A DNA stretch of 64,000 nucleotides from Escherichia phage vB_Ec-M-J, in sequence record OQ718158.1; one strand, 5' to 3'. Below the pieces are notes generated by a model. It was given only the letters and a program-made list of their open reading frames with translations, did no database searches and had not been told where the DNA came from. Below, piece after piece: positions 3,598 through 40,610 of the stretch (positions are counted from its first letter, which is position 1; each line of letters starts with the position of its first letter). The position numbers and the translations under genes are program-made.

Positions 3598-3622
3598 ACC
3601 TTATAAAATAAAAGAGGTTGCT

Positions 3623-4399: not shown

Positions 4400-4410
4400 G
4401 GAGATAACCC

Positions 4411-5505: not shown

Positions 5506-6522
<1,017 letters not shown>

Positions 6523-6549
6523 CTTAAACGACCTTATGGAGTTATTAAA

Positions 6550-7083: not shown

Positions 7084-7086
7084 GAC

Positions 7087-7632: not shown

Positions 7633-7645
7633 GGAGAATCAACAC

Positions 7646-9157: not shown

Positions 9158-9179
9158 TAACTAAAAGGATTTATTTAAA

Positions 9180-10169
9180 ATGGCTAAAAAAATTAATGAA
9201 GCACAAGTTAAAATCGATATCGCAGGACTAGAATCTGAAGATCTAGAAACACTATCTCGTATGCTTGCACTAGCTGGTCAAGCCGAGCGTCAAGCTTCTC
9301 CTGTTGCTGCTCCAGTTCCTTCTATGGGGTCAATGACCCCTTCTCTACCACCAATCGCTCCACTCGATATGGATTCAATTGGTGCTGGTGCAGAAGAAGA
9401 AGTTGGTGGTTCAATGGATGGTGCAATTGATGCACCTGTTGAAGACCCATTAGAAGTTGCTGCTGACTCACTATCTGCTGAAGCTGGTGATTTTGGTGGT
9501 GATTCTGAAGAAGTAAGTATGGATGCAGAGTTCGAAGAGCCTGGTGTTGCAGATGAAGAAGAGTTTTCTTTAGATCTTTCCGGTCAACCTCAACTAGAAT
9601 CAGTTGAAGAAGAGGAAGAAGAAGAAATCATCGAAGAAGAATTCGATTTCAGTCGTATGCTATCTCTAGCTGGTCTTCAAGACGAACCAGAAGATGAATA
9701 TTCAGTAGAAGGTAACCCAGATACTGAAGTTAAAGTTGAAGAAAACACTTTCCTACCAGACCTAACCATCTCTGAAGATGAAGAACAAGGTGACAGTACT
9801 GATTTTGGACCTTACAACACTGAAGCTGATGCCGTTCGTGACGGTCAAGCTAAAACTAATGGTGTAGAAGGTGACCACTTTGTTGTTATTACCAAGGGTA
9901 ACAAGTTTTACTGGAGACGTGTCGTTGATGAAGATGTTGACAACCGTCCTGAACCAGAGTACTATGACAATGACGGTAACGAGAACCGTGTTCACAAATT
10001 TGAACCTAAGTTCCCAGGTACTGCTCTAGGTGACAACCCACTCAATGTTAATGAGAGTGATGAGTCCGTGGAAGGTAACGAAGAACTAGAAGATGAAAGC
10101 GATGAAGAAGTCGAAGACATTTTCGAAAGTCTCCAGAAGAAATATCAACAATTTCTAGGGGACAAATAA
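9180..10169 (+). CDS. highly acidic protein (Asp/Glu-rich; repeated SRMLxLAG motif)
   Basis: 329-aa ORF with AAAGGA Shine-Dalgarno; long E/D tracts (EEEEEEEIIEEEFDF); LSRMLALAGQ and FSRMLSLAGLQ both present. Confidence 0.7.
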   Translation: MAKKINEAQVKIDIAGLESEDLETLSRMLALAGQAERQASPVAAPVPSMGSMTPSLPPIAPLDMDSIGAGAEEEVGGSMDGAIDAPVEDPLEVAADSLSAEAGDFGGDSEEVSMDAEFEEPGVADEEEFSLDLSGQPQLESVEEEEEEEIIEEEFDFSRMLSLAGLQDEPEDEYSVEGNPDTEVKVEENTFLPDLTISEDEEQGDSTDFGPYNTEADAVRDGQAKTNGVEGDHFVVITKGNKFYWRRVVDEDVDNRPEPEYYDNDGNENRVHKFEPKFPGTALGDNPLNVNESDESVEGNEELEDESDEEVEDIFESLQKKYQQFLGDK

Positions 10170-22500: not shown

Positions 22501-25497
22501 GCTTTTTGCAATTTCGATAGTATCATCAGCAGTTGTAATACTACCCACAGTTAGTGTACCGTTTATCGTTGCATTATTATCAACAACCAAACCTTCACCA
22601 ATAGCATTTAACGCAATACTAGTAGCAGTTACTTGAGTAGCTGATACACTCTGTAGTGTGCTATTTCCAGTTGCTTCAATGGTTGCTGCTCTAACCGAAC
22701 CAATTGTTGCATCTGTACTAATTAGTTTTGGTAAAGTACTTGAATTTACTGAATCACTTACTGTGATTACACCAGTACTATTAATGGTTTCAGCACTTGT
22801 TAGTGATTTAACAGTTACGTCAGCAGAACTAAGGTCAACTGTTCCTGATACAACTAAATCACCACCAATATTTGCACCTTCAGTTGTGGTAATTGATTTA
22901 GCATTAATATCAGTTGTTGCTAAGTCAATTGAACCAGGAGTTAAAACACCACTAACAGTTAGGTTACCTGTAATTGTTGTATCATTACTAATTTCAACAC
23001 CACCAGCATTAAAAATAACTGGCGTTTCAACAGAAATAGATTTCACATTACCACTTGCGACGACAGATGCTAATGAAGATGCTCCTGTAATATTTAAAGC
23101 AACACTGTTTGTTGTTGTAGCAGTTATAGTTCCAATACTTGCTTCAGTACTTGATAATTTAGGTAGAACACTAGTACCATTTAGATCATTACTAACGACT
23201 GGACCAGTACTTGTTAGTGATTTAACAGTTACATCTGCCGCACTAAGGTCAACTGTTCCTGATACAACTAAATCACCACCAATATTTGCACCCTCGGATG
23301 TGGCAATTGATTTAGCAGAAACGTCAGTTGTGCTTAGGTCAATTGAACCAGGAGTTACCGAACCACTTACTGTCAAGTTTCCATCAATTAAAGTATTATT
23401 TGTAATAGATACACCTGCTGGGTTAGAAATACTATCAGCTTGAACTACAACAGCAGTAACTTTACCAGAAGAATTTAAGTTAACAACACTAGAATTACCA
23501 CTAACTGTCAAATCTGTAATGGTTGCATCACTAACAGTTGCGTTTGTTGCAGTTAAATCAGTACTTGATAATTTAGGTAGAACACTAGTACCAGTTAGAT
23601 CATTACTAACGACTGGACCAGTACTGGTTAATGATTTAACAGTTACGTCTGCTGCACTCAAATCAACCACACCATCAACAGTTAAGTTACCATTAACAGT
23701 TACACCCTCTGTTACAGTTACAGACTTAGCAGCAACGTCAGTTGTGCTTAGGTCAATTGAACTAGGAGTTAGCGTTCCTTGAATAACAACATCATTTTCA
23801 AATGTGGTATTACCGGAAATTGTTGGCGAAGTTAATGTAGTTGTTGAAATTGAATCTGCACTTACGGAATCTGCACTTATTTCACCCGTTGATGTGATTT
23901 TTGGTGAAGTAATTTCAGTTGATGCTGAAATTGTTGGTGCTGAAACTAAAGTTGTTGCAGATACTGAATTTGAGTTAATAGTATTGGTATTTAGTACATT
24001 ACTAAGAACCATCGAACTACCATTAATTTCACCAGTTACACCAAGAGTTCCACCGATTGACGCATTACCAGTGCTTTCTAAGGTCACTGCTTTCACCAAT
24101 GTTGATGCATTAATCGAATTAGGAGTTAGGTCTTGACCACTTACATCAACAGTTAGGCCAGTTACTACACCAGTAAAGTCAACATCGTTTAAAATAGTCT
24201 TACCACCAACTCTTAGTTGTGGTGTGTTTGGGTCTTGTACCGCATTACCAGTAATTGTTAGGTAATCTAGTTTGTTTAGACCATTACCTGTGATACCGTA
24301 AGTAGCCAAAGATGCGTTACCAAAAGTTGCTGTTTTTAGAACATTTAATGTCGCTGGAGAAACAACTTCAGATTGTATTTCGTTTTGTAGTATTACTGTT
24401 GGACGTAAACCAGTACCAGTATATGCAAACGAAATTCTAGCAGCCGGATCTGCTACGTTTTGTCCTAAACTTACTGCTTTAAGTGTCGCAGTACTATTAA
24501 AACCAGTAATGTTACCACCTAAAGATACAGCACCACCTAATGAAGATGTACCAGAAACATTTAATGTTAGTGCGTTCAAATCATCCAATTGGAATGTACC
24601 ACCTAATGTTCCAGCGATATTAATATCATTAAAGTTTGCAGTACCTGAACTTTCGATATTAGGAATGGTTGCAGTTCCAGTTACTTCAAAATCATGAACT
24701 TTAGTTTTTCCAGATTTTACCTCCAACAATGGTGTTGTTGGGTCTTGAACAGCATTACCTGAAACTGTCAAGTAATCTAGTTTGTTTAGACCATTACCAG
24801 TGATACCATATGTTGAAAGTGATGCGTTACCAAATGATGCAGTAGAAAGAACTGTCAATTTTGCTGGTGACATCAACTCTGATTGAATTTCGTTTTGTAA
24901 TAGTACAGTTGGTCTTTGACCAGGAACAGTATAGCCAAAGTTAAGTCTATACGCTTGACCTGCCGCATCCGGTCCAATACGAACATCACGGAAGTTTGCA
25001 GTACTGTTTATACCAGTAATGTTTGCACCCAACGTAACTGCACCTTGTAGACCAGTAGTCCCAGACACATTAAGTGTTGTAGCATTAATATCAGAAAGAT
25101 TAAAAGTACCACCAAGTGTACCAGAAATGTTTACATCTTTAAAAGTTGCTGTGCCAGTTGAAGTAATATCAGTTGATTCAACAGAATCAAATGATCCTGA
25201 ATTAGCTTCTAAGTTATCAAATTTTGCAGTTGTTCCGACAGCAGCAGTAATGTTTCCTGCAAATGTCGCAGCACCTGAAACATCAGCACCAGCGGATAAG
25301 GTTGCCTTACCAGCAACATCCAATGTACCTGTGACATTCACAGTACCAGCGGTAATTGCAGTGAATACTGCGTTAGCAAAAGACACTTCCCCATTAACCG
25401 TTAGGTCATTACTGAATACTGCATTACCTTTGACCAAAAGATCCTTACCTACCGTGGAATTACCAGATACGTCAAGATCCGTTTTAATCGAGTACAT
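19531..25497 (-). CDS. giant repetitive tail fibre protein (1988 aa)
   Basis: ATG with AGGAGGGG Shine-Dalgarno; T/G/S/V/N-rich with multiple internal tandem repeat modules; paralogous to ORFs 27418-30567 and 25647-27395. Confidence 0.8.
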   Translation of the reverse strand: MYSIKTDLDVSGNSTVGKDLLVKGNAVFSNDLTVNGEVSFANAVFTAITAGTVNVTGTLDVAGKATLSAGADVSGAATFAGNITAAVGTTAKFDNLEANSGSFDSVESTDITSTGTATFKDVNISGTLGGTFNLSDINATTLNVSGTTGLQGAVTLGANITGINSTANFRDVRIGPDAAGQAYRLNFGYTVPGQRPTVLLQNEIQSELMSPAKLTVLSTASFGNASLSTYGITGNGLNKLDYLTVSGNAVQDPTTPLLEVKSGKTKVHDFEVTGTATIPNIESSGTANFNDINIAGTLGGTFQLDDLNALTLNVSGTSSLGGAVSLGGNITGFNSTATLKAVSLGQNVADPAARISFAYTGTGLRPTVILQNEIQSEVVSPATLNVLKTATFGNASLATYGITGNGLNKLDYLTITGNAVQDPNTPQLRVGGKTILNDVDFTGVVTGLTVDVSGQDLTPNSINASTLVKAVTLESTGNASIGGTLGVTGEINGSSMVLSNVLNTNTINSNSVSATTLVSAPTISASTEITSPKITSTGEISADSVSADSISTTTLTSPTISGNTTFENDVVIQGTLTPSSIDLSTTDVAAKSVTVTEGVTVNGNLTVDGVVDLSAADVTVKSLTSTGPVVSNDLTGTSVLPKLSSTDLTATNATVSDATITDLTVSGNSSVVNLNSSGKVTAVVVQADSISNPAGVSITNNTLIDGNLTVSGSVTPGSIDLSTTDVSAKSIATSEGANIGGDLVVSGTVDLSAADVTVKSLTSTGPVVSNDLNGTSVLPKLSSTEASIGTITATTTNSVALNITGASSLASVVASGNVKSISVETPVIFNAGGVEISNDTTITGNLTVSGVLTPGSIDLATTDINAKSITTTEGANIGGDLVVSGTVDLSSADVTVKSLTSAETINSTGVITVSDSVNSSTLPKLISTDATIGSVRAATIEATGNSTLQSVSATQVTATSIALNAIGEGLVVDNNATINGTLTVGSITTADDTIEIAKSTAITGDLAVSGTLTAGIIDLSTTDVTVKSLDSLGNVHVGGDISVDGSIDLSSADITASTLASTGSTTVGGDLVLTTGIVTGSPEISGNLTVNGTSTLVGAVSTSGTVNTAGKVTVATGGVQVVSGGLQLDEGTITAPAASISGNAALNSATVGTTLAVTGQSTFNGGVAASALDISGDSTVQKLTVKGEFIPEGGLNLAGADLVVNSVEAATTLNVIGASTLSSLDAETIDVSGPATIDSLSVTKASVLNGTLNVTGITTLGTVNTGSLSATSVSTNTLSSTGAATLGGTLQVDGLLTASGGVDLSASDVEVKSLSSSTTISSVGTASFGGAITSPSASLTGPGVGLTVNNNATVGGTLSVTGLTNLNGGVSTTTVDVSGDSTFTGDVTVNGTFTPAGGLNLASSDITANSISVATTMHSDGNTTVGGDLGVTGVVSAPSVTLNGSGTALSVTNNATIGGTLDVTGTATAGSIVTSGITSTSGNFSTTLGVTGAATFSDDVTVAGTLTPGSLDLSSTDVVANSISVATTIHSDGNATVGGSLGVTGAISAPSSTFNGTGTGLIVTNNATIGGTLSVTGATTLGSITTAGAVKTGANVVIGTQTGENPETVQIFPNTFIAGSLRVDGGINADIDVSGQTIEPYAIVAEQTIQAASDITSGASLISKAATIGEVGSQNNNLIVNGNVVNNGNFTVTGVLNAQLNQADSDVAVKSLTAANNVAAGTTLSAGTAITAGTSITATGLLKGNTLEVTTTGSFGGLVTMSSGANITGAVTTAGNITVGGNITATGTAGFAATTVSTITTSGLATLASASITGNATVGGALTVNGNVTLGDAAADVLTVNATSSFKENAVFDKAVTVTGELTTTNANLTTTTVTTKKYDVIPTQVTSSVIAPTGTWTPDGTSNVYFITLDQDTTLAPITGLIGGGKAASVYIYVKQDATGNRNFTTDGTYAVVDGELNKTAGSVTIYQVIYDGVSPVTDLFIAQRTA
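22380..23790 (-). repeat. in-frame tandem repeats (~420-nt unit, about three copies) inside the giant fibre gene
   Basis: Near-identical nucleotide blocks around 22800-22940, 23220-23360 and 23630-23770, encoding ...TPSSIDLSTTDV...VDLSAADVTVKSLTS... modules. Confidence 0.7.
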
Positions 25498-25646: not shown

Positions 25647-27395
25647 TTATACACGTTGTGCAACGAAGGTATCAAACACAGTACTGAAACCATCATAGAT
25701 TACTTGGATAATACTTGTTTGACCAACTACAGCACTTACTGTACCAGAAACTACAGAGTATGCACCACCGAAGGTGAAAGTAGTATCAGCAACAGTTGGA
25801 GTTACATAGATATACACTGAACATGCTTGACCACTACCAATTAGACCCGCGATGGAATCCATTGTAACACTTTGGTCAAGAGTTAAGCGATATACGTTAG
25901 TAGTACCATCTGGTGTCCAAGTACCACCTACAGCAGCAGTAGAAGCAGTAACACTAGCAGGGATAACAGAATATTTCTTAGTTACCATGTTGTTTGTAGT
26001 GAAGTTTGCAGTGGTGGTGTTAATAGAACCAGTCACTGTTAGGTTCTTATCAAATGTTGCGTTCTCTTTAAATGTAGATGTTGCATTTACAGTTAAAGTA
26101 TCAGCAGCAGCATCACCAATCACAGTGTTACCATTTGCAGTTAATGTACCACCTACAGTTAGAGCACCAGTTACAGATGCACTTGCAAGGGTAGCTAAAC
26201 CTGATGTTGTAATGGTAGAAACGGTTGTTGCACCGAATCCAGCAGTACCAGTTGCAGAGATATTACCACCTACTGTTAGGTCACCAGCAGTGATACCAAC
26301 AGTACCAGTGATGTTTGCACCACTTGACATAGTTACTGCACCACCAAATGAACCAGTAGTGGTGACTTCTAACGAATTACCTTTTAGTAAGCCTGATGCA
26401 GTGATGGATGTTCCAGCAGTGATTGAAGTACCAGCCGCAACGTTATTAGTTGCAGTTAAAGATTTAACAGCTACATCGGAATCTGCTTGGTTCAATTGTG
26501 CATTTAGTACACCAGTAACGGTGAAGTCACCATTAGTTACTACGTTACCATTAACAGTTAGGTTGTTGTTTTGTGAACCAACATCACCAATTGTTGCAGC
26601 TTTAGAAACGATGGTTGCACCAGAAGTAATGTTACCAACAGCAGATAGTGTTGCAGCAGCTTCAATTGCATATGGTTCTAGTGTTTGACCACTTACGTCG
26701 ATTTCAGCGTTAATACCACCGATTACACGCAATTTACCAGCAATATAAGTATCTGGAATGATCTGTACAGTTTCAGGTTGTTCACCAACTGGAGTACCAA
26801 CAGTTAGGGTTGTACCAGTTTTCACTGCACCAGTAGCTGTTAGTGAAGATACAGTAGTTGCACCAGTAACACCTAGAGTTCCAGTTACACCCAAATTACC
26901 ACCAACTGATGCGTTTGCAGTAGAAGTTAAACTTCCAACAGTTGCTAGACCAGATGCAGTCACAGTAGAAGTACTAACACCACCACTTAGAGTACTTAGG
27001 CCAGTTGCATTGATAGTTGTCGCAGTAGTTAGACTATTAGCAGTAATGTCTGCACCGCTTAGGTCAAGACCACCTTGTGGGATCAATTCACCTTGGACAG
27101 TTAGTTTCTGAACAGTACTGTCACCAGAAACTGTTAGTGATGTCGCAGATACACCTGCTAGAGTAGAAGCACCAGTTACACCTAAAGTTCCAGTAATGGA
27201 AGTTCCTGCTAGAGTAGAAGCACCAGAAACGTTAATTGTGTTAGTATTGATACCACCATCAACTACCTGAATACCACCAGTACTCACTGTTACTTTCTTA
27301 CCGATATTAACAATATCAGTTAGGTTAACAGCACCAGTTACACCAAGAGTTCCACCGATTGTTGTATTACCAGAGATAGCTGGGCTACCAGTCAC
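25647..27395 (-). CDS. C-terminal part of the second tail-fibre paralog (frameshift-split)
   Basis: Track start is GTG without a Shine-Dalgarno. The frame is open upstream to a TAG at 27435-27437 and encodes QVVGTDLVLTTGVVTGSPAISG, collinear with the middle of the 1988-aa fibre. The whole 582 aa aligns with the C-terminal ~580 aa of that fibre. Confidence 0.7.
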   Translation of the reverse strand: MTGSPAISGNTTIGGTLGVTGAVNLTDIVNIGKKVTVSTGGIQVVDGGINTNTINVSGASTLAGTSITGTLGVTGASTLAGVSATSLTVSGDSTVQKLTVQGELIPQGGLDLSGADITANSLTTATTINATGLSTLSGGVSTSTVTASGLATVGSLTSTANASVGGNLGVTGTLGVTGATTVSSLTATGAVKTGTTLTVGTPVGEQPETVQIIPDTYIAGKLRVIGGINAEIDVSGQTLEPYAIEAAATLSAVGNITSGATIVSKAATIGDVGSQNNNLTVNGNVVTNGDFTVTGVLNAQLNQADSDVAVKSLTATNNVAAGTSITAGTSITASGLLKGNSLEVTTTGSFGGAVTMSSGANITGTVGITAGDLTVGGNISATGTAGFGATTVSTITTSGLATLASASVTGALTVGGTLTANGNTVIGDAAADTLTVNATSTFKENATFDKNLTVTGSINTTTANFTTNNMVTKKYSVIPASVTASTAAVGGTWTPDGTTNVYRLTLDQSVTMDSIAGLIGSGQACSVYIYVTPTVADTTFTFGGAYSVVSGTVSAVVGQTSIIQVIYDGFSTVFDTFVAQRV

Positions 27396-27417
27396 AACAC
27401 CAGTTGTTAGTACTAGA

Positions 27418-30400
27418 TCAGTACCAACAACTTGCTAGACTTGCAGCTACAAGGTTAGTTGCACTTAAGTCGAATGCACCATCTACAGTTAGGTTACCAG
27501 CAATGTGTGCGTTACCTAGTGAATCAAGAGATTTAACGGTTACATCAGTATTGCTTAGGTCGATTGAACCAGCAGTTAGTGTGCCAGATACAGCTAAATC
27601 ACCAGTGATTGCAGTATTTTTTGCAATATTAAGAGAAGCAGCAGTTGTTGTTAAAGAACCAACAGTTGCAATGCCACCAACAGATAATGCACCACCAACG
27701 TTTGCATCATTATCAACTTGAAGACCAAGGCCACCACCAGAAAATTCAGCACTATTAGCAGTTACTTGAGTAGCTGATACACTTTGTAGTACACTGTTGC
27801 CAGTTGCATTAATAGTACCTGCATTTACTGTAAAGAGTGTTGCATCAGTTGAAGTAATTTTAGGTAACGAACTAGTATTGGTTGAATCGGTAACGGTAAT
27901 AACACCAGCACTTGTAATTGTCTCTGCACTTGCAAGAGATTTCACAGACACATCAGCAGCACTTAGGTCAAAAGTACCATCAACTACTAAGTTTCCACCA
28001 ACATTAACATCAGCAGTAGTAGTTAGTGAGTTTGCAGTAATATCAACAGTTGTTAGATCAAGACCACCTTCAGGTTTGAATACACCAGTGACAGTTAGAT
28101 CTTTTGCCGCGACAACATTACTTGCTAGATTTAGTGTACCAGCACCAGCAGCTTCAGCTTGTAAAGTTGGAACTGTTACAGAAGTTGTGATTGTTGCAGT
28201 ACCAGAAGACAAACGCGAACCAGATACTACACCAGTACTAGTTAGTGTTCCTACTTTCGCTGCACCAGTAGTAGTTAGTGTGCCACCTGAAACGTCACCA
28301 GTTGCGGCAACAGAAGATGCATTAATTACACCAAATGTACTTGGGTTAGTTGCACTAACTGATTTTGTTACTACATCAGCAGCAGACAAATCAATAGCAC
28401 CAGTTACTGCAAGAGAACCACCAACAGTTACGTTACCAGTAGTTGTTAAAGAAGCAGCACTTACATCAGTAGTGCTTAAATCTATACTACTCGGAGTTAG
28501 TGTTCCAGTAATAGTTACGTTATTAGCAAAAGTAGTGTCACCAGTAATACTTGGAACAGTTAGTGAAGCCATAGAGCCAGCACCAGTTACTGCAAGAGAA
28601 CCACCAGATAGTGCACCAGCCGCAGTTACTGTATTACCAGATACAGACGCACCAGTAACATCACCAGTACTGGTTACTGAACTAGCAGTTAGGCCAGCTA
28701 AAGTAGTGTCCCCAGCAACAGATAGTGTTGTTGTAACATCAACTTTATTTGGGGCGATATCAAGACCATCAACATCAGCTTGGGCAGTTACACCAGTAGT
28801 TGTACCAGTTACTACTAAATCACGTACAGTTACAGTTTGACCAGTAACGCTAACATCACCACTGAAAGTACCTTTAGCAGCACTTACATCACCAGTGAAG
28901 GTAGCAGCAGTACCAGTTAGTGCACCAACAACATTAGCAGTTCCACCAACTTGTAGGTTAGTTCCTACTGTGGTTTGACCAACTGATTCAAGGGTTTGAC
29001 CTTTGATTGCTTCAGCAGCATCTACTGATTTAGGAGTTAGATCTTGTCCACTCACATCAACAGTTAGACCAGTTACAGTACCAGTGAATTCAACATCATT
29101 TAGTACTGATTTACCAGCAACTTGTAGTTGTGGGGTAGCTGGACTTTGTGTACCATTACCAGTAATAGATAGATAATCTAGTTTGTTTAGACCGTTACCT
29201 GTGATACCATAGGTTGCAAGAGATGCATCACCAAAGGTTGCAGTTTTTTGTACATTAAGTACTGCTGGAGATACTAGCTCAGACTGAATTTCATTTTGTA
29301 GAATTACAGTTGGACGTGCACCAGGGGCAGAATAAGCAAAACCATACTTAACGTTAGCATCGGCGGCGTTTTGTCCTAAACTTACTGCTTTAAAATTAGC
29401 AGTACTATTAGCACCGGAAATATCAGCACCTAAAGTTACACCACCAACAAGGCTAGTTAAACCGGATACAGTTAGTGTGTTTGCTTCAATATCATCAAGA
29501 CTGAAAGTACCACCGAGTGTACCAGATACGTTGATGTTATTAAAATTAGCAGTACCAGTACTTTCAATGTTAGGAATAGTTGCAGTTCCTGTTACTTCGA
29601 AATCATGAACTTTAGTTTTACCTGAAGTTACTTGTAATAGTGGAGTTGTTGGATCTTGAACAGAGTTACCAGATACTGTTAGGTAATCTAGTTTGTTTAG
29701 ACCATTACCAGTAATACCAAAAGTGGATAGTGACGAATCACCAAAAGATGCAGTTTTCAATACACTTAGGGTAGCTGGAGACATCAATTCTGATTGGATT
29801 TCGTTCTGTAGAATTACAGTTGGACGAAGACTTGGAGCAGAATAGTTAAAGCTCAAACGGTAGTTAGTGTTTGCAGCATTGGAACCAATTTTAATATCAC
29901 GGAAGTTTGCACTACTATTCACACCAGTAATGTTGGAACCTAATGTAACACCACCTTGTAGACTGGTTAAACCAGAAACAGTTAGAGTTGTTGCATTAAC
30001 ATCAGATAGACTAAATGTTCCACCTAGTGTACCGGAAATATTCACATCTTTAAAGTTTGCAGTTCCAGTTGATGTGATATCAGTAGTTGCAGTGTTTGTG
30101 AATGTTGCATCAGTTGCAGTTATTTTGTCAAATGCTGCGGTAGTGCCAGTTTCAGCAGTAATATTACCTTTAAATGAAGAAGTTCCAAGAACATCCATTG
30201 ATGCCACTTGGGTATCTTTTAGTACAGCAGTGCCAGCGGTTTGTGTTAGGTTACCTGCCATTGATACTGGGCTTTGGAATTGTGCATTAGAATTAATCGT
30301 TGCAGTATCAGAACCAACAGGCAAATTACCAATTACGGAATTACCATGAACTTCAATTCCACCATTCAATGATGCTTTACCAGCAACATCTAGTGTAGAT

Positions 30401-30567
30401 GAAATGTCTACAGTTTCTGCTTCAATTGCAGTGAATACAGCGTCAGCAAAAGTTACAGTTCCATTAACTGTTAGATTTTTATTGAATACTGCATCACCTT
30501 TCACAAGAAGATCTTTAGCAACCGTTGCACCACCAGTTATATCGAGATCTGTTTTAATCGAGTACAT
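27418..30567 (-). CDS. N-terminal part of the second tail-fibre paralog (1049 aa)
   Basis: ATG with GGAGGG Shine-Dalgarno; N-terminus MYSIKTDLD... matches the 1988-aa fibre. Ends ...SLASCWY* exactly where the homolog continues ...LASTGSTTVGG... Confidence 0.8.
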   Translation of the reverse strand: MYSIKTDLDITGGATVAKDLLVKGDAVFNKNLTVNGTVTFADAVFTAIEAETVDISSTLDVAGKASLNGGIEVHGNSVIGNLPVGSDTATINSNAQFQSPVSMAGNLTQTAGTAVLKDTQVASMDVLGTSSFKGNITAETGTTAAFDKITATDATFTNTATTDITSTGTANFKDVNISGTLGGTFSLSDVNATTLTVSGLTSLQGGVTLGSNITGVNSSANFRDIKIGSNAANTNYRLSFNYSAPSLRPTVILQNEIQSELMSPATLSVLKTASFGDSSLSTFGITGNGLNKLDYLTVSGNSVQDPTTPLLQVTSGKTKVHDFEVTGTATIPNIESTGTANFNNINVSGTLGGTFSLDDIEANTLTVSGLTSLVGGVTLGADISGANSTANFKAVSLGQNAADANVKYGFAYSAPGARPTVILQNEIQSELVSPAVLNVQKTATFGDASLATYGITGNGLNKLDYLSITGNGTQSPATPQLQVAGKSVLNDVEFTGTVTGLTVDVSGQDLTPKSVDAAEAIKGQTLESVGQTTVGTNLQVGGTANVVGALTGTAATFTGDVSAAKGTFSGDVSVTGQTVTVRDLVVTGTTTGVTAQADVDGLDIAPNKVDVTTTLSVAGDTTLAGLTASSVTSTGDVTGASVSGNTVTAAGALSGGSLAVTGAGSMASLTVPSITGDTTFANNVTITGTLTPSSIDLSTTDVSAASLTTTGNVTVGGSLAVTGAIDLSAADVVTKSVSATNPSTFGVINASSVAATGDVSGGTLTTTGAAKVGTLTSTGVVSGSRLSSGTATITTSVTVPTLQAEAAGAGTLNLASNVVAAKDLTVTGVFKPEGGLDLTTVDITANSLTTTADVNVGGNLVVDGTFDLSAADVSVKSLASAETITSAGVITVTDSTNTSSLPKITSTDATLFTVNAGTINATGNSVLQSVSATQVTANSAEFSGGGLGLQVDNDANVGGALSVGGIATVGSLTTTAASLNIAKNTAITGDLAVSGTLTAGSIDLSNTDVTVKSLDSLGNAHIAGNLTVDGAFDLSATNLVAASLASCWY

Positions 30568-30611
30568 TTAGTTCCCTCCAAATAGGCAAAAAGCATAAAA
30601 TACATTTGACC

Positions 30612-30635
30612 TTGTTAATATACATATATTTAGTT
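30612..30635 (-). promoter_or_regulatory. late-promoter-like motif AACTAAATATATGTATATTAACAA (minus strand)
   Basis: 45 nt upstream of ATG 30567. Confidence 0.45.
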
Positions 30636-30649
30636 ATTGATATAAAAAA

Positions 30650-30676
30650 TCCAGACTAGATGAATCATAGTCTGGA
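30650..30676. terminator. rho-independent terminator, bidirectional by sequence
   Basis: tccagacta-gatgaatca-tagtctgga hairpin flanked by an A-run and a T-run; lies just after the stop of ORF 30686-31585. Confidence 0.7.
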
Positions 30677-30685
30677 CTATTTTTT

Positions 30686-31585
30686 TTATTTACCGGAAAT
30701 TACTATTTTACCACTAAACGCTTCGTCAGAAGTGAATGTAACATTACCACTTGCATCAATTTGAGTTTCGGTTATTACCAGTTCAAATGGTGATGCTGCT
30801 GTACTGCCTGGTGTTTTATTTGAATATATAGAAATATACAAATTGTCAGGTGTTTGGTTATGTTCTGACGCTGGAACAGTAATGGTGTAATCATCACCAG
30901 ATGCTACCCAATCTGCTATATTAATTAATTTACTATAAGGTACTGTCATTGTTGTTGCTCCTATGATGTTGACTTTGACACTTGTGTATTCAGTGATTTG
31001 ACCAATAACATCAATCGTAATGTCACCAATACCACTCACAGTGACGTTAGTTTGGAATACAGTGTCAAGTGGGATGTTACCAGGATCACCCTGTAGCTGA
31101 ACCATAATATCTGGACCACGACCATGTACTGATTCAGGTAAAGAATAAGTATATTGATCTGTTGTTCCAGGAACTAATGTAAATGCCGATACAGGAACGA
31201 TTTCAGTAGTAACGTAAGAACTATCAGTACCTGGAGTTGTGCTTTGGAGAGGCTTCCAAACACCAAGGTCTTTAATATAGATCTGAATAATATTAGTACT
31301 GTCAACTAAGAAGTAAGCGTCACCATCTACACCGATTGATTCAGATGGTGCAATAGTTCCACGTAAAATACCGGAACCACCACCACCACCGCTATGTGTA
31401 TTCAAATAACCCAATGTAACCAAGTGTGTATTTGCGATTGGGTCACCTGCTGAAACAGGAAGAAGTTGTGTACCCGTGTAGTTCTGGATTTGAACAACAT
31501 TACCATTAGTGGCAATTTGTGCACCATTTTTACCAAGTATGAAGGTCTTCTTCATGGTTCCTTCTAAATTAGAAAAAACTGCCAT
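30686..31585 (-). CDS. receptor-binding protein with shared N-terminal anchor (MAVFSNLEGTM...)
   Basis: 299-aa ORF with AGGAGA Shine-Dalgarno; first ~60 aa paralogous to ORF 32660-33742; poly-Gly linker HSGGGGGSG. Confidence 0.7.
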   Translation of the reverse strand: MAVFSNLEGTMKKTFILGKNGAQIATNGNVVQIQNYTGTQLLPVSAGDPIANTHLVTLGYLNTHSGGGGGSGILRGTIAPSESIGVDGDAYFLVDSTNIIQIYIKDLGVWKPLQSTTPGTDSSYVTTEIVPVSAFTLVPGTTDQYTYSLPESVHGRGPDIMVQLQGDPGNIPLDTVFQTNVTVSGIGDITIDVIGQITEYTSVKVNIIGATTMTVPYSKLINIADWVASGDDYTITVPASEHNQTPDNLYISIYSNKTPGSTAASPFELVITETQIDASGNVTFTSDEAFSGKIVISGK

Positions 31586-31599
31586 TTTTATAATCTCCT

Positions 31600-32655
31600 T
31601 TAAGATAGGGTGATATATGTTATTGGTTGAGCAGCTTTCAATAATGCCCCTGCTGCGGTAGCAGTAACAATCGGATCGGCAATATCGATACGATACGCAT
31701 TATTAACAACATAAACTGCTCTAGTGATATATGTTTTTAAATCTTCGCCATTTTCCCCTGCTCCTGTGATTAGGATTTCGGTTCCAGCAGCTTTAGCATA
31801 TTGATTATCACCCCATGATACACCCAATGCTTCGATATAAGTTTGTCCTGCAACTGTTTGTCTAATTGTGTCATATCGACCAAAGAAAGAACCACCTACT
31901 GTAACAATAAATTTTCCACCTGATTGTTTATGGATAATTGTTCCTGCTGGGAAATATCTCCCACCAGGAAAAACATCATAAGGCACGTAATACTGTTCAA
32001 CTACAGGTATTACTACAGGTCCACGATGACCCGTTCCATCAATTGCAGTGGTTACTTTAAAGTTATTAGATGATTGGTCAATACGGTCAACATACATTCT
32101 TGAGAAACTATATTTTGATATGTTACAATCATCTTGAACAACACAATTAGTCCAGTTGGTATATGTATATTTAGAGCGAGTATATAAGCCCCCTCCTTCA
32201 CCTTCAGTTGCAAGGTGTTGTCCAATAACATCAAGTTCTTTAGTACTGATATTATTAAACTTGGAAGATGACGGCAATCCACGCCATTGAATTCTACTAC
32301 ATGTAATATTAGAAAGTTCAGTAGTATTTAGCCAATTATCAGAGCCTGAAGTATACACAATAATAGACGACTCAGGAATGTGGAGATTACATAATTTAAA
32401 GTTTCGTGGAGGACCAGCAAATTTACCAGATGTTACGCCCCAGTTAATAGAAACCATACGGTTAGTTACTGATGGATCATTTAATAGATGCCCAGATAGG
32501 CCATCAATAATAAAATCAACAGAACCATAAGTAATTACACCAGCGGTTGTCAAACCAGTACCAATTGATACCAACGTTGATGGATAAACTTCATTATTGA
32601 GAATTTTAAAGTCTTTACCCAACTCAACGTGAATACATTGACGGACATTGTACAA
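31600..32655 (-). CDS. probable C-terminal continuation of the tailspike/depolymerase (frameshift-split at an A8 run)
   Basis: Track start is TTG without a Shine-Dalgarno; frame open upstream into the A8 run (plus-strand T8 at 32677-32684); beta-rich composition. Confidence 0.6.
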   Translation of the reverse strand: MYNVRQCIHVELGKDFKILNNEVYPSTLVSIGTGLTTAGVITYGSVDFIIDGLSGHLLNDPSVTNRMVSINWGVTSGKFAGPPRNFKLCNLHIPESSIIVYTSGSDNWLNTTELSNITCSRIQWRGLPSSSKFNNISTKELDVIGQHLATEGEGGGLYTRSKYTYTNWTNCVVQDDCNISKYSFSRMYVDRIDQSSNNFKVTTAIDGTGHRGPVVIPVVEQYYVPYDVFPGGRYFPAGTIIHKQSGGKFIVTVGGSFFGRYDTIRQTVAGQTYIEALGVSWGDNQYAKAAGTEILITGAGENGEDLKTYITRAVYVVNNAYRIDIADPIVTATAAGALLKAAQPITYITLS

Positions 32656-32659
32656 GCGG

Positions 32660-33742
32660 TTATTTTTTATAACGAATTTTTTTTACATATTGTGAATCAT
32701 CAGCATTCACATCATAAGGACCAGAACCTGCAACACCGATACCAATACCCCAGTTTGAAAGAGGAATTGGTGCATTTGTACCATCTACGTTTTCAATCAA
32801 GTTACCTTCTATTACAAATCCGTCTGGGTAATGTGAGTTGACTACGTTCAATTCAATTGCATCACCATATATATCATGGATGTGGTTGTATGAATAACGC
32901 CCAACGGTCATTTTCTCACCAGTGCCTTGCTGAAGAACACCGTACTTACATTGTGTCATTTCATTAAAGCAGAAGTCGATAGTACCTGATTCAGTCATAC
33001 CTTGCATTAGAAATGCAGCAGTACTTGTAATATTAATAAATTTATTAAAATAAAATTTACCATTACCACCAAAGAATTTTAAATAACATCCTGTTAATGT
33101 TGCTTGTTGGATTGTACTATTCAGTACCGATACCATTGTGCCACCGTTACCAGTGATTGTACCACCAAACCATTGAATATCATTCAAATAAACAGCAGTT
33201 CTGATACGATAATTACCACCAGCTTGAATTTGGATTTTGTGTTCTTTAGCATAAACTGCACATGCGTTAACCGCCGCCGTGTCATCAGTGATGCCATCAC
33301 CTTTTGCACCAAACTCTTCTGGAGTTATGTAAAACTGTGCCTGTTGAAGTGTTCCTCCAGTAATAAGTCCGATATAATCAGCACCGTTAACACTGGAAAG
33401 GACATTTTTATTAATGTATAATGATTTTACCCAAACATCATTTGTTTTTGCAAAGATATCAACAATACCCTCAGAATCAACTTGAAAATAAGTGTTGTTA
33501 TTTTTACCAATGTCATTTGTTGGTGGAAGTACGCCAAATAAAGCATTTGGGTTATCTTCAAGATACCTAACGTTTACTGCGGAATCATCGTCATTAGGAG
33601 TTCCCACCTTAACAGGTAGGAACGTTTCGCCTAAAAAGTCTTTGATTGCGACAGAATCGTTTACAAAATTAATAGAAGCACCACGTTTACCCAACTTGAA
33701 TGTTGGCATCATGGTCCCTTCTAAATTGGAAAAAACTGCCAT
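32660..33742 (-). CDS. tailspike N-terminal part: shared anchor plus pectate-lyase-superfamily depolymerase motif
   Basis: ATG with AGAGGG Shine-Dalgarno; N-terminus MAVFSNLEGTMMPTF... shared with ORF 30686-31585; EEFGAKGDGITDDTAAVNA is the signature start of right-handed beta-helix pectate-lyase-type depolymerases; ends in the A-run ...YVKKIRYKK*. Confidence 0.75.
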   Translation of the reverse strand: MAVFSNLEGTMMPTFKLGKRGASINFVNDSVAIKDFLGETFLPVKVGTPNDDDSAVNVRYLEDNPNALFGVLPPTNDIGKNNNTYFQVDSEGIVDIFAKTNDVWVKSLYINKNVLSSVNGADYIGLITGGTLQQAQFYITPEEFGAKGDGITDDTAAVNACAVYAKEHKIQIQAGGNYRIRTAVYLNDIQWFGGTITGNGGTMVSVLNSTIQQATLTGCYLKFFGGNGKFYFNKFINITSTAAFLMQGMTESGTIDFCFNEMTQCKYGVLQQGTGEKMTVGRYSYNHIHDIYGDAIELNVVNSHYPDGFVIEGNLIENVDGTNAPIPLSNWGIGIGVAGSGPYDVNADDSQYVKKIRYKK

Positions 33743-33756
33743 TTATCAACCCTCTT

Positions 33757-34884
33757 TTAAATGTTATCTTGAATAGGCTGAATAGGTGCTTGCCATGATA
33801 AAGTACAAACGATCTTCATTTCACCAAATGAACTGTTGTTTACGGAATCATTGAATACACAAGAAATGATTTCATCTTTACTTGATACTTCGTGGTTGGT
33901 TTCGTTAACAATGTAACGCATTTTGCGGTTGATATCGAAATAATCAACAGGTGCAATTACAGTACCACCAATATCTTCTTGTGCTTCACCACCGAAACGT
34001 ACAAACATTTCATTTACTGGTTCATCATATGCTTGGTTAATATCAACTTCGATATTAGTTACTAGGTATCCAGCAGGGCATGTACCAATAACTAACAATG
34101 CGTTAGTCCATGAATGATCAATAGTGTTGATGATAACAACTGTATCTTTACCTGGTTCACCCTGAATACCTTGTTCACCTTGCTTACCTTCTTCACCGTC
34201 TTTTCCACGGAATAAGATACCAGCACTCCACTCTTTAGTTGGGGTTGATGATGTAGTTACGATATCGACATAATACAAATTACCATCTGTCGTGTTATAG
34301 AAGCAATAATCTTGTGGTAGATTATCAATGCTTGGGAATTGACTACCAGTACTATCAATATGGAAACGACCACGTAGACCTTGTTCACCACGGAAAGGAA
34401 TACCATCACTCCATGTTGCAGTTACGCTTTGATAGAAATATAATTTACCATCTTCAGTATTATAGAATGTGTAATTATTGAAAAGACCAGTTGTTGGAAA
34501 CACCGTACCAGAACTGTCAATGTGGAATGGTTTACCAGTTTCACCAGTATCGCCTTTACCAAACTCTACACGGTTCCAAGTACTAATTGCTTCTTGTGCA
34601 TCGTTTGATTTAAAATATAAAGTACTAGTGCCATTTGCAAGACTAAGATAACACCACCCTAGTTCTTCACCAACACGGAAGAGTTCATTAGGAACTTCAA
34701 AACCTATCTCATTTGGATAAAAGTTTCTACCGTTAGCACCATTTTGTCCAACCACTAGACCTAGGTCTTGGATTGTATTGTCGGAATAGGTTACAATTAA
34801 ATGTCCAGCAGCGTTAATAACTAAACTTTTGATGCCAGAATTATTACATGAACCACCTGACCCATTGTTGAATGAAATTGTCAT
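33757..34884 (-). CDS. tail fibre-like protein with a short collagen-like Gly-X-Y segment
   Basis: Track start 34920 is TTG and would cover the promoter-like motif; ATG 34884 has an AAGGGA Shine-Dalgarno. Contains GKDGEEGKQGEQGIQGEPGKD and duplicated ...LYFYQSV...W..GI.FRG.QG modules. Confidence 0.65.
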   Translation of the reverse strand: MTISFNNGSGGSCNNSGIKSLVINAAGHLIVTYSDNTIQDLGLVVGQNGANGRNFYPNEIGFEVPNELFRVGEELGWCYLSLANGTSTLYFKSNDAQEAISTWNRVEFGKGDTGETGKPFHIDSSGTVFPTTGLFNNYTFYNTEDGKLYFYQSVTATWSDGIPFRGEQGLRGRFHIDSTGSQFPSIDNLPQDYCFYNTTDGNLYYVDIVTTSSTPTKEWSAGILFRGKDGEEGKQGEQGIQGEPGKDTVVIINTIDHSWTNALLVIGTCPAGYLVTNIEVDINQAYDEPVNEMFVRFGGEAQEDIGGTVIAPVDYFDINRKMRYIVNETNHEVSSKDEIISCVFNDSVNNSSFGEMKIVCTLSWQAPIQPIQDNI

Positions 34885-34907
34885 AATATTTCCCTTGTAT
34901 GAGTTAA

Positions 34908-34930
34908 TGTCATATACCAATATTTATCAG
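34908..34930 (-). promoter_or_regulatory. late-promoter-like motif TAAATATtgGTATATGAC (minus strand)
   Basis: About 24 nt upstream of ATG 34884. Confidence 0.35.
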
Positions 34931-34993
34931 TACAAAATACATTTCGTTGCCATTAATAAATAAATGAAAGTTCACTACTAAAAGGGCTTAACA

Positions 34994-35491
34994 ATGGCAT
35001 TAAGATCAAAAGACTTCCTCTTCAAAAGAAAAACTAAAGATGGTTCATGGCAAGAATTTCCTGAATCAGATAGCTGGTATCCTGCTAACTTAGATTATCA
35101 TTGGAACGAACAAACATTACCATTAGCTAGTGGCGGCTATTATGGTAGTACTACAGGATTACATACAATATCCTTTACCCTACGTAACTTCATTGGTAGA
35201 ATTTACGTACTCGCTACACTGGCAAGTAATCCATCTGACGATGATTGGTTCCCAATTAAATTTACCGAAAGCTGCAACTTCTATCTTGAATTTACTGATA
35301 ATGTCATTCTTAACCCAAATGGCGGCGACCTTATTAGAGAACAAGGTACAACTGGTACATTCGCTGAAACCTTAACCGGAAACTTTACCTATCTGAAAGT
35401 TGGTATTGACCGTGATTACATTAGCAAGTATCCATCTGATGTACAAAAAAGTTTAGCTGGTAAGTTAGAACAAATTTTAATTAACTACTAA
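34994..35491 (+). CDS. hypothetical protein
   Basis: 165-aa ORF with AAGGG Shine-Dalgarno; first gene of a three-gene plus-strand operon. Confidence 0.65.
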   Translation: MALRSKDFLFKRKTKDGSWQEFPESDSWYPANLDYHWNEQTLPLASGGYYGSTTGLHTISFTLRNFIGRIYVLATLASNPSDDDWFPIKFTESCNFYLEFTDNVILNPNGGDLIREQGTTGTFAETLTGNFTYLKVGIDRDYISKYPSDVQKSLAGKLEQILINY

Positions 35492-37731: not shown

Positions 37732-39075
37732 TTATTTGTCAGTGAAAGTTATTTTCCAATATCCCTGACGATATACTGACATAATACTCTTATGCCATTT
37801 GAATTTGTCATTATATCTATAATATCCACTATCTTCCATATTATAAACATAGTTGTGTACTCGCGATGGCTCAATAAGTTCTGCTCCATCATTGGTAATT
37901 TTAAACAAATAGTTCGCTGGGATTTCAGTCTCTTTGTAAATGATGTTATGTATGCTATTATTTACATAATATTGTTCAGGTAGTGCGTTATATAACAAAG
38001 AGTCTTTACTAATGAATCCATGTATTGTATAATCAACAGTATAATTACTATTATCAAGCTGAACTACAATCTTGTTAGAATCAGCCCCTTCCCCAAATGA
38101 AGAGATATGTCCTTTTAGTGGGTTATCCTCTTCTATAGCTTGTTGGAATTTAATACCTACAGTCTTGTCTTCATATTCTGGGTCCAAGTACTTAAGGTAT
38201 TTTTCCCATGAATAAATCCCACCATTTGGTGATGTTTCCGATAGTGATTGACTAACAAGAGTGAGTTGGTAAGTATCTGGAATATTAAGTTCAGAGTTTG
38301 TTATTTCATCAACTTTAATACATAAGTTCTTTGGTGTGAATACATCAGTAATGATATCCGAGTAATTACCAATTTCAAAATCAAGTTCATCACGAGCACC
38401 TTTAATATTGGTGGTGATTTGTTGGATAAGTTTTGGTTTCTCAACAATAGCTGGCAAAGAGAACCAAATTGTGGTTTCAAATGTCAATACCATTATATCC
38501 AAATCACTATCGGTTCCTTGTGGGAAACCACGAGTAGTAAATTGACAGTCAATCAACTCCACATCACTCAATGATGTCCAATCCAATGGGTTCTCGGAGA
38601 GTTGTAGTTGAATACTAGGAGCAAACAATGTTGAAATTTGCTCAAATAGTTCCATTTTAGTTTGTGTTTGTGTAACCCAAATATTAACATCAAACGTAAA
38701 TGTCCAAGGTACTGGGTTATGACGAGTTACTTTATACTGTTTATCTAAGTCTTTAGTATATTCGTTAATTCCAGGGGACTTGTTAGTCCCCATAACTAAT
38801 GTTTCATTTGCGTTTGAACGAACTGACTTGCGATCTAGTTTAAGTTGGTTTACACTAATGGTCATGATTGGTGCTGTTGGAAGCACGTTCTCACTGTTAC
38901 CATTAATAATTGCGGCTGCCATACGTGAAATATCTGCATAGCGGCAAGGAACTTTCTTATATTTTGGTTTTCCGTCAGCATCAACACCATTTTGTACTTG
39001 AAATTCACCAAACACTCTGATAAGATGTTTCAGTACTCGACGAAATTGACCATCATAATAATAATCTATTTTCAT
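37732..39075 (-). CDS. hypothetical protein (447 aa)
   Basis: AAGGA Shine-Dalgarno; start overlaps the upstream stop (ATGA), suggesting translational coupling. Confidence 0.7.
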   Translation of the reverse strand: MKIDYYYDGQFRRVLKHLIRVFGEFQVQNGVDADGKPKYKKVPCRYADISRMAAAIINGNSENVLPTAPIMTISVNQLKLDRKSVRSNANETLVMGTNKSPGINEYTKDLDKQYKVTRHNPVPWTFTFDVNIWVTQTQTKMELFEQISTLFAPSIQLQLSENPLDWTSLSDVELIDCQFTTRGFPQGTDSDLDIMVLTFETTIWFSLPAIVEKPKLIQQITTNIKGARDELDFEIGNYSDIITDVFTPKNLCIKVDEITNSELNIPDTYQLTLVSQSLSETSPNGGIYSWEKYLKYLDPEYEDKTVGIKFQQAIEEDNPLKGHISSFGEGADSNKIVVQLDNSNYTVDYTIHGFISKDSLLYNALPEQYYVNNSIHNIIYKETEIPANYLFKITNDGAELIEPSRVHNYVYNMEDSGYYRYNDKFKWHKSIMSVYRQGYWKITFTDK

Positions 39076-40568
39076 TCTGAATCCTTATGTATACGATACG
39101 CTGTATTAGGTTTAACTGCATCATGTAATGGTACACGGTTCGGGCTATTAACAAATTCTGTTAGAGCAAGATCTGCACCTTCCCACGGTTTTCTACCACC
39201 GTAATCGAAAATCACCCAAGAATTCTTGGACGCACTGTATTCCCATAGGGTTACTGGTGTATAATCGGTACGATAGTAGTAATCACCATCAACTGCATCA
39301 CTTGGGAACATATTACCTTCAGGAACTGTACCTCGTGCTGGAGGAATCTTAGGACGATAATCTTGTTGTGAATCGATATTTCCATAAACACTATTAGAAG
39401 TGAATGGGTCATTAACGTAAGTTACTTCTGGTTCTCCCCATTTACCATTTAAGTACTGATAAATGTGTGGTTCTTTGTATTCAATATAAAAATCATCAAC
39501 CCCTTGTGGTGGTGTGCTTTCTGTAGTATACTCAACATCACAATTTAGCCACTTTTTGGCAGATTTATCGTATTGATACAATGAGAAGCCAGTGACATCA
39601 GCCTCGTTTTCTTTAAAGAAGAAGTCACCATCCATCGGTTTGCGAGGAAAGATTGTTCCACGCTTGACTTCTACAGAAATCCATGTATCATTAGATAGTT
39701 CTTTCAGTACTGGGTAAGTTTTCTTGAGGAAATACATTTTATTTGCTGGTTCCTCTGGTAATTCGTATCCATTTAGCATATACTTAGACAAATCAACAGT
39801 ATCTGGTCTGTCATCGAACAAGTGTTCGTTAGTAAAATGAATGTATGGTACTTCATCATCAGCTTGCATAATGATACGGTTCATAATATCCATTTCATTA
39901 CCATAGCTGCTGTTCTCTGAAGAGCCATCATCAGTATTACCATTGCCGTTGTTTGGATCATCTGGGTCATCAGGGTAGTTATTGTTACCTAGAAGGTCAG
40001 AGTACTCTGGTGAATCAGTAAGAGGTTTAACACGGAGTTTGTAAATGTGATGTTGCCATGTAACTGAGTAACCTTCTGACGTTCTAAACCCATCTTGTAC
40101 TACATAGAAGCGGTTTAAACCAGAATCTTTACCAAGTACATCAAAATCACGTAAGTTAGGAAGTTCGATTACGTCACCTGGCATAATTTTTCTTCCCAAA
40201 CGCTGAATCATTGTGTTATAATGAATTGTGATGTCCATAGTGTTAAAGTTGAAGAACAATCCTGGGATTTTCAAGTCAGGAGTTGCTTCTTGGACTTGGT
40301 AGACGCAACTTAAGGTGATAGCTTCGAGATTATAGTTACGACTTGGAGTGTCACCAAAAATTAAATCACCAATGCTTGACACAACGGTACTATCTGATCC
40401 ATAATAATCACCGCCGTATGATAAATCAGTGTTATCAGCGACTTGTTTTGGTCCGACATAGGCATAAAGCCACATGTCAACACCACCGATGTTGTATTGT
40501 TCTGCTATGGCAGAGTCAATGAACTTGTAATCATTGGTTCTACCTTTTTTCCACATTCTATATGCCAT
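39072..40568 (-). CDS. hypothetical protein (498 aa) with a D/N/G-rich low-complexity insert
   Basis: Track start 40580 is TTG; ATG 40568 has a GGAGA Shine-Dalgarno (MAYRMWKKG...). Confidence 0.7.
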   Translation of the reverse strand: MAYRMWKKGRTNDYKFIDSAIAEQYNIGGVDMWLYAYVGPKQVADNTDLSYGGDYYGSDSTVVSSIGDLIFGDTPSRNYNLEAITLSCVYQVQEATPDLKIPGLFFNFNTMDITIHYNTMIQRLGRKIMPGDVIELPNLRDFDVLGKDSGLNRFYVVQDGFRTSEGYSVTWQHHIYKLRVKPLTDSPEYSDLLGNNNYPDDPDDPNNGNGNTDDGSSENSSYGNEMDIMNRIIMQADDEVPYIHFTNEHLFDDRPDTVDLSKYMLNGYELPEEPANKMYFLKKTYPVLKELSNDTWISVEVKRGTIFPRKPMDGDFFFKENEADVTGFSLYQYDKSAKKWLNCDVEYTTESTPPQGVDDFYIEYKEPHIYQYLNGKWGEPEVTYVNDPFTSNSVYGNIDSQQDYRPKIPPARGTVPEGNMFPSDAVDGDYYYRTDYTPVTLWEYSASKNSWVIFDYGGRKPWEGADLALTEFVNSPNRVPLHDAVKPNTAYRIHKDSE

Positions 40569-40610
40569 GTTTGTCTCCAAAATAAATCGGGTATATCTTT
40601 ATTTACCTTG

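Follow-up and report, generated by a model that had tools for sequence, protein, structure and literature searches.

Why should two neighbouring tail genes of Escherichia phage vB_Ec-M-J, whose products end in unrelated sequences, begin with the same protein module? The genes lie on the minus strand of a 64,000-nucleotide (nt) stretch of the phage sequence (record OQ718158.1), which we call the window and to which coordinates refer unless another locus is named. A first-pass annotation, made from the letters alone, had placed them at 30686-31585 and 32660-33742, where both open reading frames (ORFs) are indeed found, and had read them as interchangeable receptor-binding cassettes attached to a common docking site. 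We consider it fairly probable that the module is a virion-proximal mount for differing cargo, that the upstream gene is a fusion of this mount to a colanidase tailspike, and that the tailspike gene is frameshifted here.

Two adjacent tail genes share an N-terminal module

30686..31585, minus strand: ORF299, a conserved RaK2-group virion protein (phrog_10468, E = 8e-92)
31250-31585, minus strand: the module of ORF299, residues 1-112 (BLASTP against the tailspike N-terminus)
31600..33742, minus strand: predicted colanidase tailspike gene, 713 residues once one base is removed (phrog_6117, spanning both halves)
33419..33742, minus strand: the N-terminal module of the tailspike, residues 1-108 (BLASTP against ORF299, profile search and AlphaFold2 (AF2) model)

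A BLASTP comparison of ORF299 with the 5´ part of the tailspike gene, read here as ORF360, aligned the two N-termini with an E-value of 6e-20 and 45/110 identities (41% over ~108 residues), and the first 11 residues, MAVFSNLEGTM, are the same in both proteins. The "almost identical" module of ~60 residues described in the first-pass annotation is thus a real homology with an identical start, but its overall identity is 41% over ~108 residues. At the nucleotide level, the first ~30 nt of the genes are nearly identical as had been noted, with 31 of the first 33 coding positions matching, but the resemblance does not carry over to the Shine-Dalgarno context, where merely 12 of 20 upstream nucleotides match. 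The C-terminal parts are unrelated, as had also been proposed, with BLASTP similarity ending at about residue 110. When all stop-to-stop ORFs in the window with 50 or more residues were scanned with phmmer, the module was confined to these two ORFs (next best E-value 0.18).

The start of the module is conserved well beyond this phage. The ORF299 orthologues of Cronobacter phage GAP32, Pectobacterium phage CBB, Serratia phage BF and Yersinia phage fHe-Yen9-04 have the same first 33 nt as ORF299, and these likewise match the tailspike gene at 31/33 positions. Since the same 33 nt are found in distant genera, the identity of the two starts is not a signal of local gene conversion. We also noted that these nucleotides (window 31553-31585 and 33710-33742) are kept at synonymous sites across genera in which the proteins are just ~50% identical, a pattern that may reflect selection acting on the nucleotides around the translation start, or else very strong codon bias; in the four fetched loci from the other genera, the 33 nt lie at 7001-7033. 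Collectively, the sequence comparisons give good support to the two neighbouring tail proteins, with a common module and different cargo, being putative modular receptor-binding proteins.

The tailspike body resembles the phi92 colanidase and its reading frame is interrupted

32670..32677, minus strand: frameshift site, A8 on the coding strand (T8 on the plus strand), A7 in Escherichia phage Ecwhy_1 (alignment)
25647..30567, minus strand: giant fibre gene directly downstream of ORF299, 1644 residues in Ecwhy_1 (single coding sequence Ecwhy1_207)

The ORF at 32660-33742 had been treated as a whole gene, but proved to be the 5´ fragment of a 713-residue gene whose frame is interrupted. As sequenced, the tailspike gene consists of ORF360 (32660-33742, 360 residues) and ORF351 (31600-32655), which match positions 93-353 and 360-709, respectively, of PHROG 6117 ("colanic acid degradation", 711 positions). 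In Ecwhy_1, EC.P1, WPEC3, WPEC5, fEgEco12 and PBECO4, the gene is one coding sequence of 2142 nt. The extra T in 32670-32677 is the sole indel relative to Ecwhy_1 within 30400-35000; the resulting A8 run stops the ORF at residue 360 and leaves the rest of the body in the +1 frame, and deletion of one base there gives a 713-residue protein that is 100% identical to Ecwhy1_205. ORF351 was considered and rejected as an independent gene, given its TTG start, the lack of a Shine-Dalgarno sequence recognisable by eye and its contiguity with ORF360 in relatives. As sequenced, the gene would give a 360-residue stub comprising the anchor and roughly the first 250 of ~600 body residues. The annotation of this locus should hold one 713-residue tailspike, as a pseudogene or a corrected gene, and not two unrelated proteins.

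Residues 96-712 of the repaired tailspike align with phi92 gp150 (PDB 6E0V, chain residues 11-623; phmmer E = 4.3e-233), with 57% identity over 617 residues to the phi92-type gp150 of phage Paula. This homology starts at about residues 96-108, exactly where the similarity to ORF299 ends. The body was found in 254 phage records, among them rV5-like, PVP-SE1-like and T7-like phages and small podophages, and several of these records are labelled "tailspike colanidase". According to a phi92 structure paper of 2026 (PMC13450770), which cites a 2025 biochemical study, gp150 degrades colanic acid by hydrolysing the Glc-Fuc beta-1,4 linkage. By homology, the repaired body would be a colanic-acid hydrolase. 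The earlier description as a pectate-lyase-type depolymerase agrees with the beta-helix fold implied by the homology to 6E0V, but the close relative gp150 is reported as a hydrolase. The score for PF12708 was 22.3 bits, against a cut-off of 27 bits. Identity as an orthologue of E. coli WcaM was rejected, as the tailspike scored 95.5 bits against the 808-bit cut-off of the NCBIfam equivalog and the similarity is only partial.

The extra A may have arisen by mutation, making this a true loss-of-function allele, or it may be a sequencing error in the homopolymer. That it is an error of sequencing or assembly, and that the phage truly encodes an intact 713-residue tailspike, is a serious contender which we place somewhat short of an even chance. 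The change is of a single base in an 8-base homopolymer, its removal restores identity to the Ecwhy_1 protein, and three further homopolymer length differences from Ecwhy_1 are found in the window. All three of these, however, are intergenic. Only two frameshifting coding indels relative to Ecwhy_1 are present in the 64 kb, the tailspike +A and a deletion in the giant fibre gene, both in adsorption genes, and the second is not of the homopolymer type, which argues for real mutations in adsorption genes.

This second lesion (window 27380-27470, near 27429) is a clean 14-nt deletion (GTAGTAGAACCAGT in Ecwhy_1) accompanied by one substitution. It splits the 1644-residue gene into ORFs of 1049 and 582 residues, and 9/9 relatives have 14 nt more at this site. 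The earlier count of at least six fibre or spike genes needs to be read accordingly, as it partly rests on a giant fibre gene that is split into two ORFs here.

A frameshifted allele of the tailspike gene also circulates elsewhere, a further point against a sequencing error. Escherichia phage vB_EcoM_JNE01 (locus 3501-5643) has, relative to Turkey5, an independent +C at nt 361 of the same gene, which cuts at the junction of module and body and leaves a 141-residue anchor stub and a 588-residue TTG-initiated ORF. Gene calls for exactly this 141-residue product are present on 28 contigs, and for four variants of it on a further 7; given the 28 contigs, it is a circulating allele and not a one-off error. 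Anchor-only stubs thus seem to recur, and the disruption in vB_Ec-M-J may be a real allele.

The module combines an N-terminal domain with a beta-hairpin repeat

33551-33742, minus strand: N-domain of the tailspike module, residues 1-64 (profile search split)
33422-33544, minus strand: single 38-residue beta-hairpin repeat of the tailspike module, residues 67-107 (repeat hidden Markov model, E = 4.6e-15)

A profile of the module was searched exhaustively against 1.8 billion representative proteins and gave 123 matches; a word-indexed protein search with the 109-residue module alone, which proved too insensitive, had returned one protein. The 123 matches fall into two classes, those to positions 1-65, found solely at protein N-termini, and those to positions 63-106, found internally and often 4-10 times per protein. 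The first class defines an N-domain of 62-64 residues with the consensus MA[IV][FY]SN[LF]xGT[MF]...[LI]GKxG...P[VI]..[AG].P....[DH]A[VT]..Y, recognisable by a near-invariant MA[VI]FSN[LF]xGTM peptide and a P-x4-[DH]-[AL]-V-[TN]-x-x-Y motif. The second corresponds to a 38-residue repeat with the pattern [WI]L.G.G.P....G..GD.Y.D..TG..Y.K..G.W, of which the module holds one copy, whereas other proteins, collagen-like fibre proteins among them, carry it in long tandem arrays that in some cases alternate with collagen GXY repeats. The repeat model, run across the window, did not find it in the upstream 375-residue tail protein. Weak, non-significant matches of the GD.Y.D...W type were seen in the 502-residue virion protein at 39072-40580, for example DGDYYYRTDYTPVTLWEYSASKNSW (sequence E = 0.27), and this conserved neighbour may hold a degenerate copy.

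The N-domain heads proteins of 101 to 1366 residues with varied cargo: a 780-residue beta-helix spike with a Peptidase_S74 chaperone, a 705-residue Beta_helix spike, BNR/sortilin-propeller fibres of ~1200 residues and the ~290-residue two-domain ORF299 family. It also occurs in stand-alone proteins of 113-115 residues, including those of RaK2 and K64-1. Both the 780- and the 705-residue spike are encoded on one 120-kb contig of an unrelated smaller phage (Logan SRR18476386, 1-1773 and 8001-10118 of the fetched locus), and both are tagged with the Pfam family PF27114, "Phage_tail_beta". PF27114 had a precomputed match on no ORF299 homologue (n = 66) and no mention in the papers searched. Neither the Pfam version used, which lacks PF27114, nor NCBIfam gave a match to ORF299 or the module, and the literature searched held no description of this shared module in Asteriusvirus. 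The N-domain appears to be an uncharacterised domain family.

These associations bear on the idea of interchangeable cassettes. Module and body do recombine independently in other phages, the body occurring with other N-termini and the N-domain with Beta_helix, S74 and BNR bodies or alone. The two modules of this phage, on the other hand, are 41% identical, compared with the 57-64% identity of the ORF299 module to its orthologues in other genera; being more diverged than these, they are not freshly interchangeable copies.

By AF2, the module (predicted local distance difference test score, pLDDT, 83) is modelled as a small beta-sheet and a beta-hairpin subdomain, with the conserved motif in a short helix. 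A search of BFVD returned family members plus weak collagen-like matches, and a profile search of PDB with the N-domain gave no significant match, only a motif-level resemblance to DPxxxxDAxTKxYVD of the phage hyaluronidase HylP.

The ORF299 protein consists of the module, a GGGGGSG linker and two beta-sandwich domains (residues ~120-208 and 212-299). In its AF2 model the C-terminal domains have pLDDT values of 80-96, while confidence in the N-terminal part, modelled as a monomer, is poor. Foldseek with this model found no match in PDB below E = 0.03, and none of 66 ORF299 homologues (284-309 residues) carries a Pfam annotation.

A probable attachment handle or a possible trimerisation neck

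These features suggest to us that the module is a virion-proximal handle that would hold different distal cargo on the tail, and that probably contributes to trimerisation as well. Candidate partners would be the tail protein encoded next to it, the giant fibre, or some site on the periphery of the baseplate. The tailspike cargo, a predicted beta-helix colanic-acid hydrolase, would strip E. coli exopolysaccharide and so open the way to the receptor, and the two small beta-sandwich domains of ORF299 would bind some ligand. Consistent with a place on the particle, mass spectrometry of purified virions identified CBB_227, the orthologue of ORF299 (5 peptides, 32% coverage).

Alternatively, the module could mainly be an N-terminal folding "neck" that nucleates trimers, with attachment left to another part of the protein or to a separate adaptor. 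We regard this as rather unlikely, though it draws on several observations: the BFVD matches outside the family are collagen-like proteins, the HylP motif is the one sequence hint from PDB, the 38-residue repeat is interleaved with GXY repeats in other proteins, and the N-terminal part of ORF299 is badly predicted as a monomer. It fits poorly with the 115-residue module that RaK2 and K64-1 retain on its own, with no cargo to trimerise, and with the first 11 residues being the most conserved, down to the nucleotides across genera, the pattern expected of a partner interface. Trimerisation and docking are, moreover, not mutually exclusive.

Some points nevertheless weigh against the docking interpretation. 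The weak matches of the module point to trimerisation units, and oligomerisation could be its main role. Two co-resident modules at 41% identity do not imply a single common site. Finally, the displayed rows of the phAPEC6 virion mass spectrometry table list gp253 and gp256 but not gp254 and gp255, the orthologues of the tailspike and ORF299. The phAPEC6 record (MK817115.1, locus 5986-9193) contains no coding sequence for gp254 or gp255, its numbering skipping both, and the two may have been left out of the database used for the mass spectrometry search. As they are missing from the GenBank record too, the phAPEC6 data say nothing either way.

The further proposal of a branched, multi-receptor adsorption apparatus stays conjecture. 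Published electron microscopy of the relatives phAPEC6, CBB and fEgEco12 reports six short baseplate fibres together with hair-like whiskers and describes no branched structure of the RaK2 type.

Recurrent truncation as a possible switch

The split between ORF360 and ORF351 could itself be functional, either as a phase-variable or slippage switch at the A-tract or as a two-ORF design, with a stub bearing the anchor made alone or alongside some full-length spike, so that virions would differ in colanidase display. A run of eight A residues could in principle permit slippage, the +A is one of just two frameshifting coding indels in 64 kb, both in adsorption genes, the independent JNE01 frameshift (28 contigs plus the 7 of the variants) truncates the same gene to an anchor stub of 141 residues, and an anchor-only gene of 115 residues is kept in RaK2 and K64-1. 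We nevertheless consider a switch distinctly improbable. An intact 2142-nt ORF is present in all five close relatives inspected as well as in PBECO4 and Turkey5 (the A7 run was read in Ecwhy_1 only), and the two-ORF arrangement is accordingly not conserved in Ecwhy_1, EC.P1, WPEC3, WPEC5, fEgEco12, PBECO4 or Turkey5. Restoring the frame would take a +1 or -2 shift or a deletion in the RNA, not the classic -1 shift, and ORF351 has the weak start described above.

A broader version, only a shade less improbable to us, extends the docking interpretation: the N-domain with its MAVFSNLEGTM peptide would be a so far undescribed plug in wide use, fitting a single conserved baseplate socket in the RaK2 group and other large myophages, stubs would be selected socket caps, and recurrent frameshifts would turn colanidase on or off at the population level with tail assembly undisturbed. 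If so, the caps would include the 115-residue RaK2 and K64-1 proteins, the 141-residue JNE01 allele and the 360-residue product here.

A probably ancestral module gene and a tailspike fusion found in Asteriusvirus

The phage is an Asteriusvirus and belongs with the PBECO4/121Q-like jumbo coliphages of the RaK2 supergroup. In 19 additional viral loci surveyed for synteny, gene order is nearly invariant, with a 502-residue protein, a gp15-like protein, a NUDIX protein and then proteins of 366, 202 and 165 residues on the opposite strand, followed by a ~370-residue tail protein, a ~286-residue module protein and a giant fibre. Only in Asteriusvirus (121Q and the window) was an extra tailspike gene found, which sits between the genes for the tail protein and the module protein, and there are exactly two module copies per Asteriusvirus genome and one in the other genera. 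In the Klebsiella jumbo phages K64-1 (gp067, locus 7001-7348) and RaK2 (ORF061, locus 3501-3848), the ORF299-type gene is cut down to the 115-residue module. It is followed there by a 510-residue structural protein, and the giant fibre was not found at that place in RaK2.

In a neighbour-joining tree, the tailspike modules form their own clade. This separation, with the divergence of the modules noted above, indicates that the duplication or acquisition is old. The ORF299-type gene would be ancestral to the whole RaK2 group, and the tailspike would have been born in Asteriusvirus alone, when an old, diverged copy of the module was joined to a phi92 gp150-related colanidase body that spreads horizontally.

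That the N-terminal similarity is instead a functionally meaningless leftover of recent tandem duplication or gene conversion, as adjacent, co-oriented genes with 31 of their first 33 nt in common might suggest, is very remote, given the same 33 nt in distant genera, the greater divergence between the co-resident modules (41%) than between ORF299 orthologues across genera (57-64%), the separate clade and the conservation of the N-domain on unrelated proteins of unrelated phages; recent gene conversion in particular is contradicted by the 33-nt conservation and the module tree.

Genomic setting

33757..34884, minus strand: 375-residue "tail protein" with a short collagen-like stretch (phrog_13565, E = 8e-213)
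30644..30678, minus strand: intrinsic-terminator-like hairpin and U6 run just after the ORF299 stop codon (RNA fold)

Over the region 30500-34950, identity to Ecwhy_1 is 99.9%, compared with 98-99.6% for eight other phages and ~80% for the PBECO4 group. This region lies among tail, baseplate and fibre genes, which include a baseplate wedge protein, a hub/lysozyme, a 3333-residue structural protein and a sheath-completion protein. Along the minus strand, the order is the 375-residue tail protein, the tailspike, ORF299, giant fibre 1, giant fibre 2, a 259-residue protein and a 654-residue protein. In RaK2-group phages, the ~370-residue tail protein is directly upstream of the module gene or genes, a synteny that holds in 17/19 fetched viral loci, and its phAPEC6 orthologue gp253 was detected in virions by mass spectrometry with 65.6% coverage. 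We take it as a candidate docking partner of the module, and the giant fibre encoded at 25647..30567 as a second candidate.

The hairpin at 30644..30678 has a predicted energy of -16 kcal/mol (z = -5.35), and 0/200 shuffles folded equally well; a consensus terminator scan overlooked it, its loop being 9 nt by eye and thus beyond the 8-nt limit of the scan. With this terminator-like hairpin after ORF299, the co-oriented tail protein, tailspike and ORF299 genes look like one transcription unit that it closes.

We also noted that the second giant fibre gene (19531-25497, minus strand) encodes 1988 residues here and 1899 in Ecwhy_1. Within it, ~3.4 kb at window 20700-24600 gave no alignment to Ecwhy_1 with megablast and has mosaic flanks, which suggests repeat-mediated exchange within the fibre shaft.

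Relation to known systems and significance

The closest described relatives of the tailspike are phi92 gp150 (PDB 6E0V/6E0W) and its Justusliebigvirus orthologues, for example Paula_0167, a "colanidase tailspike", to which the body aligns end to end at 57% identity. These proteins have an unrelated N-terminus of ~190 residues in place of the 108-residue module; the body is carried by a 350-kb jumbo phage here and by a 148-kb phage in the case of phi92, and the gene is frameshifted in the window. E. coli WcaM, a beta-helix protein of colanic acid biosynthesis, shows partial similarity (~200 residues, E = 3e-27) and it is from WcaM that the annotations reading "colanic acid biosynthesis protein" derive. 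For ORF299, the orthologues GAP32_221, CBB_227, RaK2 ORF061 and K64-1 gp067 ("virion structural protein", phrog_10468) are 37-64% identical and lie, like ORF299 itself, between the genes for the tail protein and the giant fibre; they differ in that the RaK2 and K64-1 proteins are module-only (115 residues) and that a second, tailspike-bearing copy is present in Asteriusvirus alone.

The arrangement recalls the anchor/conserved-peptide model of modular receptor-binding proteins in Klebsiella phages (Latka et al., 2019; PMC6872550), a paper that also reviews G7C, CBA120 and K1-5/SP6. As in those systems, a conserved N-terminal element is found on receptor-binding proteins of one genome, bodies are exchanged horizontally and anchor-only remnants occur. 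The anchor here, by contrast, is another domain, unmatched in Pfam and PDB, and is on just two proteins. A T4 gp10-like branching domain of the CBA120/G7C type was not detected here.

Because the principle of modular receptor-binding proteins is already well established, the conceptual gain is small. What the locus adds is a small conserved domain, unmatched in the Pfam version and the PDB sequences searched, whose place in future baseplate cryo-electron microscopy maps would be worth finding. If the module is an attachment handle, residue ~108 would mark the junction where depolymerase or binding bodies from other sources could be attached, retargeting Asteriusvirus or other jumbo phages of the RaK2 group.

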